From assembly GCA_021201825.1 (NCBI GenBank), contig JAJQED010000001.1:27785-91784 (forward strand): a stretch of 64,000 nucleotides of DNA, written 5' to 3'. Source of the DNA: Alistipes sp. (GTDB taxonomy: Bacteria; Bacteroidota; Bacteroidia; Bacteroidales; Rikenellaceae). Shown piece after piece: positions 30,916 to 46,999 of this stretch; position 1 is the first letter of the stretch, and every line of letters begins with the position of its first letter. A program made the position numbers and the translations under genes. The notes beneath the pieces were generated by a model. The model was given only the letters and a program-made list of their open reading frames with translations, ran no database searches and was not told the origin of the DNA.

Positions 30916-32154
30916 ATGAATAGAATAGTGCTTATAGGGAACGGATTCGATAAAGCACATGGTTTACCAACTGGCTATAAAGAATTTATGGATAGTTATT
31001 GGACAGATTTTTCTTTAAATATATATAGCGGAAGCGCGGTTAATGACTATGAGGATGAGTTTGTTACATTTCATAATGGATCTCAAAGTGCTAAACTTAA
31101 AAGCAGTGTTAAACCATCTTATAATTTAAATTCCTATACAAGTCTCATAAAATATATTGGAGAAAGTAGACCACAAAATACTACTCATAATTACGGCATA
31201 TCATTCAAGAATAATTTTTGGAAACACATTACCCAAAGAACCTCTCTCAATAGTTGGCTTGATATAGAGAACGAATATTATTATTTGCTCAAAAGTTATT
31301 TGAAAGATGATAAACAAGGTGAATTAGTTCGAAAGCTCAATGAAGAATTTTCTCAGGTCAAGAAATTACTTGAAAAATACTTGACAAATGTTAGCATAAA
31401 AGAAGTTAAGAAGATTGACTCAATTGAAGAAGCATTTAGATCATTGCCTATTCATAAAGATGATGTTGGCTTATCAAAATTACAAATGTTTTGGGGTACT
31501 TTATCTGACGAGATTGATAGAGTTAAGAATATAATCAGGAGTGGAGGTCAAGAATATCACTTTGCAAAATTGAAAACCGACGAAGAATTAGATGAGGAGA
31601 TAAAAAGTGTTAGTGAAGAGAAAGGAATATTTCCTATGAGGACTTTATTCCTTAATTTTAATTACACCAGCACAGTTGAGAAATTGTATCTGCGGCCTGA
31701 TGATGATTTTGTTATCAATATTCATGGAGAGTTAAATAATCCAAAAAACCCGATTATTTTTGGATATGGAGATGAATTAGATGACGATTATAAAGACATA
31801 GAGAAGACCAATGATAATAATTTTATGGAAAACATGAAACACATACATTATTCTAATACGGATAATTACCGTGCGCTGCTAATGTTCTTGCAGCAGGAGC
31901 CATATCAGGTTTTTGTAATGGGACATTCATGCGGGAATTCAGATAGAACTTTACTCCAAACTATTTTTGAGCATACAAACTGCGTATCGATAAAACCTTT
32001 TTATTACCAATGGAAAGATGCAGAATGTCAAGAAATTAAAGATAACTACACAGAAATATGTAAAAACATATCGCGAAACTTTAATGATAAAAAATCTATG
32101 AGGGATATTTTAGTAAATAAGGTTTATTGTAAACCATTATCTCCTATATCTTAA
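30916..32154 (+). CDS. AbiH-like abortive-infection family protein
   Basis: 412 aa. Four motifs were seen: IGNGFDKAHGLPTGYKEF, NFNYTSTVEKLY, NIHGE...IIFGYGDE and VMGHSCGNSDRTLL. Confidence 0.65.
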   Translation: MNRIVLIGNGFDKAHGLPTGYKEFMDSYWTDFSLNIYSGSAVNDYEDEFVTFHNGSQSAKLKSSVKPSYNLNSYTSLIKYIGESRPQNTTHNYGISFKNNFWKHITQRTSLNSWLDIENEYYYLLKSYLKDDKQGELVRKLNEEFSQVKKLLEKYLTNVSIKEVKKIDSIEEAFRSLPIHKDDVGLSKLQMFWGTLSDEIDRVKNIIRSGGQEYHFAKLKTDEELDEEIKSVSEEKGIFPMRTLFLNFNYTSTVEKLYLRPDDDFVINIHGELNNPKNPIIFGYGDELDDDYKDIEKTNDNNFMENMKHIHYSNTDNYRALLMFLQQEPYQVFVMGHSCGNSDRTLLQTIFEHTNCVSIKPFYYQWKDAECQEIKDNYTEICKNISRNFNDKKSMRDILVNKVYCKPLSPIS

Positions 32155-32197
32155 TAACTTAGAAGGACATATTAAAAAAAGATTATATCTTTGATGT

Positions 32198-32803
32198 ATG
32201 CCCAACAAGGATAAATACATACCTTGGATAGGGGTCGGTATTGCTTCATTGGTACTGGCTTCCATAGGGCGGTATGTTGCCTTGCAACATGACGCGGATA
32301 CAGGGACAGCCAATCTTGTGTTTGTTATTGTTTTGGTAAGTATCGGCTTATTGTATGTCCTTTCTATAGAATTATTAGAGCCGATATTCAAATGTATTTT
32401 TAAACGTATAAGGGTAAAACCGAAGTACTGTACATCATTACCTGACGATGCTGTGCTGAAAAGTAAGATCGAATCTTTCTGTCAATATTCCGATGAAATT
32501 TTGGCAGGATATATACCGGACGAAGAAATGCCGCTATTGCACCGCTATATTGAGCAATACGCTAAAAGTAACACGGGCGACGTGCCGCAGAAGATTACGA
32601 CGACTGGATTAGATAACTTTGAACTCTACCACTACGGTTGGAATATTTGGAACCACTTTGACGTGATGGAGCAGCCGGAAACCGCTGATTGGCTTATCGC
32701 TGTTTTCTCCAAGCTATCAAAATCCAAGCGAACAATCTATAAGAAATTTAAGCACGATGGTCGGGACACATATAAAATACCAATAGAACCGAATATAAAA
32801 TAG
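32198..32803 (+). CDS. hypothetical 2-TM membrane protein
   Basis: 201 aa. Two N-terminal hydrophobic helices (WIGVGIASLVLASIG; LVFVIVLVSIGLLYVL) are followed by a soluble domain with no recognised motif. Confidence 0.45.
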   Translation: MPNKDKYIPWIGVGIASLVLASIGRYVALQHDADTGTANLVFVIVLVSIGLLYVLSIELLEPIFKCIFKRIRVKPKYCTSLPDDAVLKSKIESFCQYSDEILAGYIPDEEMPLLHRYIEQYAKSNTGDVPQKITTTGLDNFELYHYGWNIWNHFDVMEQPETADWLIAVFSKLSKSKRTIYKKFKHDGRDTYKIPIEPNIK

Positions 32804-33004
32804 CAACCGGAATAAATCGGCTACGAAGGGATTTACAGCAATGTAAATCCCTTTTGCTTTTTATTTCTTTTATAAATAGTCGGTTACAAATGGGGATTGA
32901 AACACCCAACAAAAACTTTTTCCCCGCAATTACTCCTCGTACTCTTGTCCCGGATTCACACGAATCTGCCTGTAAAGGCTTTGTAAAACTTTAAAACTTT
33001 TGTT

Positions 33005-45600: not shown

Positions 45601-45896
45601 GCTTGACCGATTATGAATATGCTTTTTATACGGCAGTTGCTAATAACACCAGCGCAAAGGAACTGATGCAACAGGAAAAATTAAAAGAATTGGCAGTGGT
45701 ACTAACCGAAACAATCCGGAATAATGCGTCCATTGACTGGACAATAAAAGAGAGTGTCAAAGCTAAATTGAAAGTTTCGGTAAAACGTCTTCTCCGCCAA
45801 TTCGGTTATCCACCGGATATGCAAATGTTGGCAACGGAAACTGTGTTGAAGCAGGCAGAAATGATAGCGGAGGAATTGATTAAAGATAATAGATAA
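42669..45896 (+). CDS. hsdR: type I restriction enzyme R subunit
   Basis: 1075 aa. It has an N-terminal nuclease-like region ([18 protein letters not shown]), helicase motifs HTQGSGKS and [10 protein letters not shown], and [29 protein letters not shown]. Confidence 0.95.
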   Translation: [1075 protein letters not shown]

Positions 45897-45910
45897 ATTT
45901 TGAGTTGATA

Positions 45911-46999
45911 ATGAACATAGTTTTCTTAGTCGGAAATGGCTTTGACCTGAATCTGGGAATGAAAACCCGATATGGTGATTTTTATGATTATTATTTAGCA
46001 AAGTCACCTACTGAGAGTACCACCAATATTCATCAATTACAGAGCAATCTTAAAGAAGATAGGGAGAATTGGTCAGATTTAGAAGAGGCGCTTGGGCAAT
46101 ACATTGGAAGAATTGAGGCTGAAGAAGCAGTGCAGATTCATACCCATCTAGTGAAAGAGTTGGCCCAGTATCTTTTAAAAGAAGAAGATAAGTACATAAT
46201 TGACAATAGCCATCAAGGCATATTTTATGAACACTTAGTCAATCCCGAGAATCTCTTGTTGCCACTTGAGACGCGGGATATAAAAAACTTTAAAGACAAC
46301 TGGAGTAATCATAATTGGGATATAAAAATTATTACTTTCAATTACACTAAATCACTGGAAAAGTTATTAGCATATGAAAACAAAGCTCTAAAAATTGGAA
46401 CCCACGGAAATAATCCAAGCCGAGCAATAAATGTATCTGAAATTGAGCATATTCATGGTTTTCCAAACAATAGAATGGTATTAGGTGTCAATGATTTTAC
46501 ACAAATAGGCAATGAAAAACATCAGGAGGTAAGAATAATCAGGAATAAATATATTAAACCTCATTGTAATAGTACTTACCGACTTGGGCATGAAACTAAG
46601 TGTGTTCAGTGGATTGGGCAAGCTGACTTATTTTGTGTATTCGGGTTATCTTTTGGTAACACAGATAAGTATTGGTGGGAGGCAGTTGGGAAGAGAATTG
46701 CGAATGAAAATGTTAAAATGATTATATTCTGGAATGACCCAAATTCTTTATTTTCGGGTAACGAGGGCCCAGAGAGAGTAGAAAGAGAAGATGAAATCAA
46801 AGATTATTTTTTATGCAAAACAGGATTAGATGAAATAAAAAAGGAGAAAATAAAAGAACGAATTTATGTTGGTTATAATACCGAATTCCTTAAAGTAAAA
46901 TTACTACTTAAAGAAAGTATTTCTTCTAAATCAAAAGATAAATCTAATATTCCGCTTCACGGTATAGGGCACATTAACCTGCCGACTAAAACAAGTTAA
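45911..46999 (+). CDS. AbiH-like protein immediately downstream of hsdR
   Basis: ATG at 45911. Motifs are VGNGFDLNLGMKTRYGDF, TFNYTKSLEKLL, HIHGFPNNRMVLGVND and VFGLSFGNTDKYWW. Confidence 0.6.
   Translation: MNIVFLVGNGFDLNLGMKTRYGDFYDYYLAKSPTESTTNIHQLQSNLKEDRENWSDLEEALGQYIGRIEAEEAVQIHTHLVKELAQYLLKEEDKYIIDNSHQGIFYEHLVNPENLLLPLETRDIKNFKDNWSNHNWDIKIITFNYTKSLEKLLAYENKALKIGTHGNNPSRAINVSEIEHIHGFPNNRMVLGVNDFTQIGNEKHQEVRIIRNKYIKPHCNSTYRLGHETKCVQWIGQADLFCVFGLSFGNTDKYWWEAVGKRIANENVKMIIFWNDPNSLFSGNEGPERVEREDEIKDYFLCKTGLDEIKKEKIKERIYVGYNTEFLKVKLLLKESISSKSKDKSNIPLHGIGHINLPTKTS

Follow-up and report, generated by a model that had tools for sequence, protein, structure and literature searches.

A mobilizable element in an Alistipes tRNA-Leu gene carries three distantly related SIR2-like proteins in a crowded defence cargo

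The locus described here raises the question of whether three genes that share one set of motifs, and that lie in one defence island, make up a system of their own or are separate defence genes stored side by side. The island lies in a stretch of 64,000 nt of an Alistipes sp. contig (JAJQED010000001.1, positions 27,785 to 91,784), referred to below as the window, and the three genes encode two AbiH family proteins, AbiH-A and AbiH-B, and a DUF4917-like protein. We find that an 18.8-kb integrative mobilizable element, inserted into a tRNA-Leu gene of an Alistipes genome at its 3' end, carries the region as its cargo, and that the three proteins share a SIR2-like Rossmann fold. The reading we favour, with a probability of about 0.6, is that the cargo is a stacked defence island made of a type I restriction-modification (R-M) system, a RhuM-Doc protein and three independent single-gene SIR2-type abortive-infection modules acting by consumption of nicotinamide adenine dinucleotide (NAD+). 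It is a crowded but largely ordinary island, in which every gene type is already catalogued.

The three open reading frames (ORFs) are all on the plus strand. AbiH-A (30916-32154, 412 aa) matches Pfam AbiH (PF14253) at 103.4 bits (E 2.8e-29) and AbiH-B (45905-46999, 364 aa), which is of canonical length and is the last gene of the cargo, matches the full model (positions 1-260) at 139.2 bits (E 3.3e-40), the gathering threshold being 30.9 bits. The probable true start of AbiH-B is the ATG at 45911, giving a protein of 362 aa, the same as P0121. The DUF4917-like protein (41389-42681, 430 aa) matches Pfam DUF4917 at 52.5 bits (threshold 28 bits), covering the C-terminal half of the model only (positions 157-307 of 311), and matches PADLOC PDC-S21 at 137.6 bits (E 1.6e-40). 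The PADLOC AbiH model (PDLC02345) gave no full-length match, with 64-79 of its 343 positions aligned at 28.2 and 26.8 bits, and NCBIfam holds a model for none of the three. Identical proteins occur on an NCBI contig of an Alistipes sp. metagenome-assembled genome (MAG), where they are annotated as "AbiH family" and "DUF4917 family". AbiH-A has more than 7,000 homologues. A helical insert of ~200 residues separates its motifs 1 and 2, its C-terminal motif is Cys-rich, and it has a conserved GHSCGNSD motif. The DUF4917-like clade is modest (104 clusters at 50% identity, E up to 1e-30), its members being ~425 aa long; their middle region (residues 140-280) is peculiar to the clade, and the model has low confidence there.

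The four motifs that the initial annotation had described in all three ORFs, in the order Gly-rich loop, NY[TD], His-Gly and G-S-D, were confirmed at these coordinates, and their core residues are invariant when 32 diverse homologues of each family are aligned. The invariant positions are G8-N-G-F-D12, N249-Y250, H270-G271 and G336/S338/D343 in AbiH-A; G10-N-G-F-D14, N146-Y147, H184-G185 and G247/S249/D254 in AbiH-B; and N28-G-F-N31, N136/D138, H287-G288 and G362/D369 in the DUF4917-like protein. The FNYT motif of Pfam AbiH is present as NFNYT at 247-251 of AbiH-A and as TFNYT at 144-148 of AbiH-B, with both the N and the Y invariant. In motif 1, the first position is Ala instead of Gly in the window's DUF4917-like protein and in 5 of its 32 relatives.

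Pairwise BLASTP among the three aligns just 17-28 residues around motif 1 and is not decisive; taken by itself, such a result would suit a chance resemblance of unrelated proteins. Comparison of deep family profiles with hhalign, however, relates AbiH-B to AbiH-A over the full length (probability 97.2%, E 3.7e-11), the DUF4917-like protein to AbiH-B over 253 columns with motifs 1, 2 and 4 aligned (93.0%, E 3.4e-7), and the DUF4917-like protein to AbiH-A with motifs 1, 3 and 4 aligned (62.5%, E 7.3e-5). The comparison had been redone in this way after shallow profiles of 32 sequences gave 95.9%, 77.6% and 33%. The family hidden Markov models (HMMs) also cross-match one another reciprocally: the DUF4917-like profile finds AbiH-B members (best E 6.8e-7), the AbiH-B profile finds AbiH-A (~1e-12), and Pfam AbiH is weakly matched by 10 of 32 DUF4917-like relatives. 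With motif residues invariant in every family, and with the AbiH-B and DUF4917-like models sharing their top structural match (see below), a chance resemblance is extremely improbable. The three proteins are distant homologues of one Rossmann-type fold, as the initial annotation had supposed, and not the unrelated folds that it had named as the alternative outcome.

Searches of the PDB with sequence profiles of all three families returned nothing relevant at E up to 10, and the link to SIR2 therefore needed structure prediction. AlphaFold2 models were made for AbiH-B (mean predicted local distance difference test score, pLDDT, 88.3) and for the DUF4917-like protein (mean pLDDT 74.3), and were compared with the PDB by Foldseek. 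The top match of both models is Sir2 of the E. coli SIR2-HerA/Nezha system, with probability 1.00 and E of 4.5e-7 and 1.7e-5, respectively. For AbiH-B the next matches are ThsA, DSR2 and SPARSA-Sir2, at high probability, and for the DUF4917-like model ThsA, DSR2, SPARSA, Hst2 and Sir2Tm appear at weak scores only. Consistently, Pfam SIR2_2 aligns to residues 142-206 of AbiH-B, the TFNYT and HIHG segment (16.2 bits, E 0.012), and to residues 326-379 of the DUF4917-like protein, the IIGCSLSDND segment (16.0 bits, E 0.013), both below its threshold of 24.5 bits; among AbiH-B relatives, 6 of 32 match SIR2_2, with E down to 9.8e-6. AbiH-A is tied to the fold through its hhalign match to AbiH-B. The SIR2/Rossmann relationship that had been suspected from the motifs is thus borne out by models, sub-threshold Pfam matches and profile comparison alike.

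Both models place every motif at the C-terminal end of a predicted beta-strand, which is where Rossmann-type enzymes bind the dinucleotide. The Gly-rich loop after strand 1 reads GNGFD in AbiH-A and AbiH-B and (A/G)NGFN in the DUF4917-like family, and is probably a variant of the NAD+-binding GAGxS loop of sirtuins. The Asn of NY[TD] and the His-Gly are invariant in all three families and stand in the expected order, and the partial SIR2_2 alignment spans both in AbiH-B. From motif order and spacing, together with these partial alignments, we infer that motifs 2 and 3 hold the catalytic Asn and His of ThsA/DSR2-type NADases. What had been called an "NGF(D/N) fold" is the SIR2 fold in its defence branch, and the profiles and models confirm that AbiH and DUF4917 make up one branch of the immune SIR2 proteins, marked by the GNGF[DN] loop.

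The three genes travel on a mobile element. A low-GC block extends over ~28.1-47.1 kb of the window (GC ~0.37-0.48, against 0.52-0.60 in both flanks), with GC falling from ~0.56 to ~0.42 on entering it from the left. Two copies of a 60-nt direct repeat, 92% identical and spaced by 18,810 nt, form its attachment (att) sites: the left copy (28245-28304) contains a partial tRNA-Leu 3' end and a downstream hairpin, and the right copy (47055-47114) overlaps the 3' end of tRNA-Leu(gag) (47097-47181, minus strand), the integration target and the sole tRNA that ARAGORN finds in the window. AbiH-B ends 56 nt before the right repeat. All genes of the element are on the plus strand. They include a tyrosine integrase (28506-29885; Pfam Phage_integrase and Phage_int_SAM_5) and a mobilisation module comprising a helix-turn-helix protein (33005-33313; Pfam HTH_17), a DnaG-type primase (33234-34214; Pfam Zn_ribbon_DnaG and Toprim_2) and a MobA/VirD2-type relaxase (34735-35721; Pfam Relaxase). 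Integrase, relaxase, primase and direct repeats that include a tRNA 3' end are together what characterises an integrative mobilizable element at a tRNA gene, and the block is therefore read as one. It adds one more well-delimited mobile defence island to those of gut Bacteroidota genomes, and the mobilizable element itself is newly delimited here.

Two of the SIR2-like genes sit in the type I R-M operon, whose seven genes are tightly packed: hsdM, two small ORFs, hsdS, the DUF4917-like gene, hsdR and AbiH-B. The DUF4917-like gene lies between hsdS (40201-41376; Pfam Methylase_S; PADLOC Specificity_I, 300 bits) and hsdR (42669-45896; HSDR_N, SWI2_SNF2, T1R_D3-like and T1RH-like_C; PADLOC REase_I, 1277 bits), with a 12-nt gap after the former and a 13-nt overlap with the latter, and AbiH-B starts 8-14 nt 3' of hsdR. 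The third gene, AbiH-A, starts 2 nt 3' of a RhuM-Doc (Fic fold) fusion (29915-30913; Pfam Virulence_RhuM and Fic), which matches PADLOC PDC-S23 over its full length at 482 bits and falls slightly under the cut-off of NCBIfam DOC_P1. The gene coordinates thus agree with the earlier description of one island with two genes in the R-M operon and one behind the RhuM-Doc gene.

The hsdM gene (38012-39574; HsdM_N and N6_Mtase) is split over two ORFs of 301 and 190 aa by an in-frame TAA at 38915-38917, which replaces a Gln codon. In the Logan assembly of the sibling sample SRR15221362 (L139), 4 of 9,136 positions differ from the window, and one of these gives CAA and an intact HsdM of 520 aa; the assembly of SRR15221321 (L138) is identical to the window, TAA included. 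A frameshift or an assembly artefact, considered as the origin of the split, was rejected on the basis of this single in-frame T/C difference. Should the variant be real, the population that carries it would have both restriction and modification switched off, with the embedded SIR2-like genes intact. The natural hsdM-null and hsdM-intact alleles offer a ready comparison pair.

How might such a cargo work? According to the stacked-module reading, each SIR2-like protein would be kept inactive until a phage-derived cue releases it, and the released protein would then consume NAD+, or ADP-ribosylate a target, so that the infection is aborted. The three proteins would act independently of each other, as back-up layers behind restriction, the R-M system being the first line. 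Their co-location would reflect type I R-M operons and mobile-element ends acting as permissive hot spots that gather defence genes. The proteins are predicted to be active enzymes because the catalytic-type residues are conserved, and phage-triggered NAD+ consumption is predicted because their structural neighbours are immune SIR2 proteins and their genes occur in defence and mobile-element contexts.

The neighbourhoods of related genes elsewhere bear on the independence of the three. We collected 57 DUF4917-like loci from species-representative genomes, labelling hsd genes by HMMs iterated from the window's proteins; the loci span Bacteroidota, Spirochaetes, Candidate Phyla Radiation (CPR) bacteria, Proteobacteria and archaeal MAGs. 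At 37 of 55 loci, each from a different species, hsd genes occur within three genes of the DUF4917-like gene, and at the remaining 18 there are none. The gene directly follows hsdS at 25 of 54 loci, and 23 loci have it between hsdM/S and hsdR, typically in the order hsdS-X-hsdR. Pairwise identities of the DUF4917-like proteins co-vary with those of their HsdR partners (r = 0.72, Mantel 0/2000 permutations), and these partners fall into at least two HsdR lineages (24-35% versus 70-83% identity). A Pfam scan of 97 neighbours in 17 loci without hsd labels revealed no second common context, the families being scattered (TPR, three N6_N4_Mtase, two Eco57I, glycosyltransferases). An AbiH gene lies within 8 kb of the DUF4917-like gene at none of the 57 loci.

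AbiH genes keep different company. Among the 53 metagenome loci that are 4 kb or longer, AbiH-B touches hsd genes in 4, among them one with hsdR followed by AbiH as in the window (L096) and one with the order hsdS-AbiH-hsdR (L087). The labelling marked neither a DUF4917-like nor an AbiH-A gene at any AbiH-B locus. The genes upstream of AbiH-A fall into ~26 different clusters, in a set of loci that is partly redundant as the same elements were sampled in different metagenomes; hsdR or hsdS is the upstream gene in L203-L207, L214, L216 and L222, and another AbiH gene in some loci. In Bacteroidales mobilizable elements (L143-L150, positions 5053-7284), AbiH-A homologues of ~47% identity start 12-24 nt after MNT-HEPN genes (NTP_transf_2 and HEPN). 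AbiH-family genes also occur in tandem, beside lysis genes, in seven prophage-like gut loci of IMG/VR, as three genes in L187, L188 and L201 (3008-7308) and as two in L168, L169, L176 and L178 (~4790-7310). Together, the 0/57 DUF4917-like loci with AbiH, the 4/53 AbiH-B loci near hsd and the variety upstream of AbiH-A point to independence of the three, and the first of these counts, with no labelled co-occurrence at AbiH-B loci, indicates that each family occurs mostly without the others.

A further recurrent neighbour is RhuM-Doc, which adjoins a GNGF-type SIR2 gene in the window (29915-32154), in L205-L207 (~6000-8290) and in the DUF4917-like loci L018, L029, L033, L041 and L053. The pairs occur in either order, often as overlapping or 2-nt-spaced ORFs. 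This adjacency could reflect common use of hot spots or a genuine two-gene pairing, and RhuM-Doc as a recurrent direct partner of GNGF-type SIR2 genes constitutes a second, weaker lead.

The initial annotation had suggested a possibly cooperative family, and indeed SIR2 defence proteins function as oligomers, solved assemblies being among our PDB matches, and the gut prophage-like loci repeatedly carry two or three AbiH-family genes in a row. One could therefore imagine the three proteins working as one system, perhaps as a hetero-oligomer or as a relay from sensor to effector. The counts above, however, show that the window's combination is not recurrent, and the trio was rejected as one recurrent system on these grounds. 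Within the window the genes stand in three separate places: the two AbiH genes are 14 kb apart, and AbiH-A is 9 kb from the R-M operon, with the mobilisation genes between them. Lactococcal AbiH, moreover, functions as a single-gene abortive-infection system (PMC13064643). Cooperation of the three is thus very improbable. Nor do we give much credit to the idea that the proteins, rather than being defence effectors, are NAD+-dependent protein deacylases or ADP-ribosyltransferases that serve in regulation, addiction or interaction with the host, perhaps by stabilising the mobile element or by modifying subunits of the R-M system. The DUF4917 protein SliP of C. jejuni has indeed been reported to have sirtuin deacetylase activity (PMC10421069). 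The Asn/His pair is common to deacylases and NADases and does not discriminate between them. The contexts, however, are overwhelmingly those of defence and mobile elements (R-M, RhuM-Doc, HEPN, prophage accessory-gene regions), the structural neighbours are immune SIR2 proteins, with Hst2 and Sir2Tm reached only at E above 0.07 by the DUF4917-like model, and AbiH was discovered through its abortive-infection phenotype. We regard this idea as quite improbable.

The most interesting alternative concerns the DUF4917-like protein alone, the AbiH proteins being independent here too. One may speculate that this protein is a restriction guardian similar to PrrC, tied physically or functionally to the type I R-M complex and acting as a SIR2-type, NAD+-consuming suicide effector. 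The slot it occupies is that of prrC in EcoprrI, between hsdS and hsdR, and its tight junctions in the window, the frequency of this position elsewhere, the phylogenetic breadth of the association and the co-variation with at least two HsdR lineages are all in line with such a role. On this evidence the ~425-aa clade could conceivably be a SIR2-type counterpart of PrrC in the hsdS-hsdR slot across bacterial phyla and some archaea, although we doubt it. By a mechanism that we offer as a tentative speculation, the effector would be released once a phage anti-restriction protein disables the R-M enzyme, much as the inhibition of EcoPrrI by T4 Stp activates PrrC, whose gene is embedded in a type IC locus (PMC12707154). 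However, about one third of the loci have no type I genes nearby, so that R-M is not required, whereas PrrC is nearly always embedded in type I R-M (bioRxiv 10.1101/2024.01.29.577857); the 18 loci without hsd depart from a near-exclusive association, and their neighbours are heterogeneous. The hsdS-hsdR junction, in addition, is generic as a landing site and receives many unrelated defence genes, and co-variation with HsdR is also expected from plain co-transfer of a cassette. The hsdM nonsense codon next to an intact DUF4917-like gene is a weak argument against an effector restrained by the M2S complex. We therefore consider the guardian role unlikely. If true, it would link NAD+ depletion to the sensing of anti-restriction, and it is in any case a useful, testable by-product of this analysis.

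Several points weigh against our preferred reading of independent, NAD+-consuming modules. Against solved SIR2 structures the models reach modest TM-scores of 0.38-0.48, which the large family-specific inserts would lead one to expect, and the DUF4917-like model has a mean pLDDT of 74. The Gly-rich loop deviates from the canonical sirtuin GAGxS, and the proposed equivalence of the Asn and His to those of the NADases is drawn from motif order and partial Pfam alignments. To our knowledge, NADase activity has been demonstrated for no member of the AbiH or DUF4917 families. The strong, position-specific embedding of the DUF4917-like clade fits coupling to R-M better than pure independence. Finally, SliP, the one DUF4917 protein that has been characterised, is a secreted deacetylase according to its published description (PMC10421069).

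The element also carries other genes. Just 5' of hsdM lies a YpsA/SLOG-family gene (36976-37563; Pfam YpsA, 1.5e-15). The two small ORFs between hsdM and hsdS, of 88 aa (39567-39833) and 124 aa (39830-40204), have overlapping stop and start codons and no homologue among the 57 DUF4917-like loci. The longer one has one transmembrane helix and a coiled coil and has a weak match to NCBIfam SLATT_1 that falls far short of the cut-off (E 0.0045), so that a SLOG-SLATT pairing with the YpsA/SLOG protein is only a lead. A 201-aa ORF with N-terminal transmembrane helices (32198-32803) has no match in Pfam, NCBIfam or PADLOC, and a 184-aa ORF with a transmembrane helix and a coiled coil (35820-36374) has none in Pfam or NCBIfam. 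A scan for promoters and terminators returned no more sites than in shuffled sequence, with a consensus that is ill-suited to Bacteroidota. Outside the element, a second low-GC patch (window positions ~8000-15000, GC 0.43-0.45, minus strand) encodes a GT2 glycosyltransferase, a DUF5128 six-bladed beta-propeller, a radical SAM protein and a sulfotransferase-like protein, and may be a biosynthetic cluster acquired separately.

As for known systems, the element itself resembles the NBU1-type mobilizable elements of Bacteroidales, which have a tyrosine integrase, a primase and a relaxase and insert in the 3' end of tRNA-Leu with duplication of an att core. The resemblance, drawn from the general description of these elements, lies in this layout; unlike them, the element in the window devotes more than half of its length to defence cargo.

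Much of what the cargo contains has been described before. AbiH is listed among the immune SIR2 ("SIRim") proteins (bioRxiv 10.1101/2024.09.18.613514) and is regarded as sirtuin-like with a proposed NAD+-depleting mechanism (PMC13064643, a 2026 review), and DUF4917 was recognised as sirtuin-like, closest to ThsA, in the study of SliP (PMC10421069). Defence genes are often embedded in type I R-M, and the criterion behind the PDC candidates of PADLOC was "guilt-by-embedding", with BREX, DISARM or type I R-M loci as hosts (bioRxiv 10.1101/2024.01.29.577857). PDC-S21 and PDC-S23, matched here by the DUF4917-like and RhuM-Doc proteins, both belong to this candidate set. The suggestion of the initial annotation that this is an undescribed arrangement of proteins with an unknown mechanism is therefore not sustained: fold assignment and embedding are both already on record. 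What is not on record is an anti-phage activity of PDC-S21, for which a literature search under that name found no report, and the enzymology of either family.

Compared with AbiH of Lactococcus lactis (PF14253; "AbiH" in DefenseFinder), the two AbiH proteins of the window are alike in Pfam score, FNYT motif, single-gene organisation and carriage by a mobile element. They differ in that the PADLOC AbiH model is matched by short stretches only (~27-28 bits), in the ~200-residue helical insert and Cys-rich C-terminal motif of AbiH-A, and in their host, which belongs to Bacteroidota and not to Firmicutes; they are, besides, known from sequence alone. The DUF4917-like protein is alike to PDC-S21 and DUF4917 in its PDC-S21 match, its above-threshold Pfam score and its embedding in type I R-M. 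It differs in that it aligns to the C-terminal half of Pfam DUF4917 only and belongs to a clade with its own middle region; SliP, for its part, is reported as a secreted deacetylase and not as a defence protein.

The immune SIR2 NADases, namely Sir2 of SIR2-HerA, ThsA, DSR2 and SPARSA, are the best structural matches and share the same order of Gly-loop, Asn, His-Gly and G-S-D. In contrast to them, the proteins of the window come without a partner or sensor domain (HerA, SLOG, pAgo or the long DSR2 C-terminus), carry GNGF[DN] in place of GAGxS, and reach 16 bits with SIR2_2, against the 24.5 bits of the threshold, at the modest TM-scores given above. With the anticodon nucleases PrrC and RloC, the DUF4917-like gene shares its place as one extra, co-oriented and closely packed gene between hsdS and hsdR, and a "guardian of restriction" logic could apply to it as well. 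The likeness seen here is one of gene position; the effector folds are unrelated, SIR2-like here and an ABC-ATPase with a nuclease there, and the DUF4917-like gene is embedded in about two thirds of its loci, not in nearly all.

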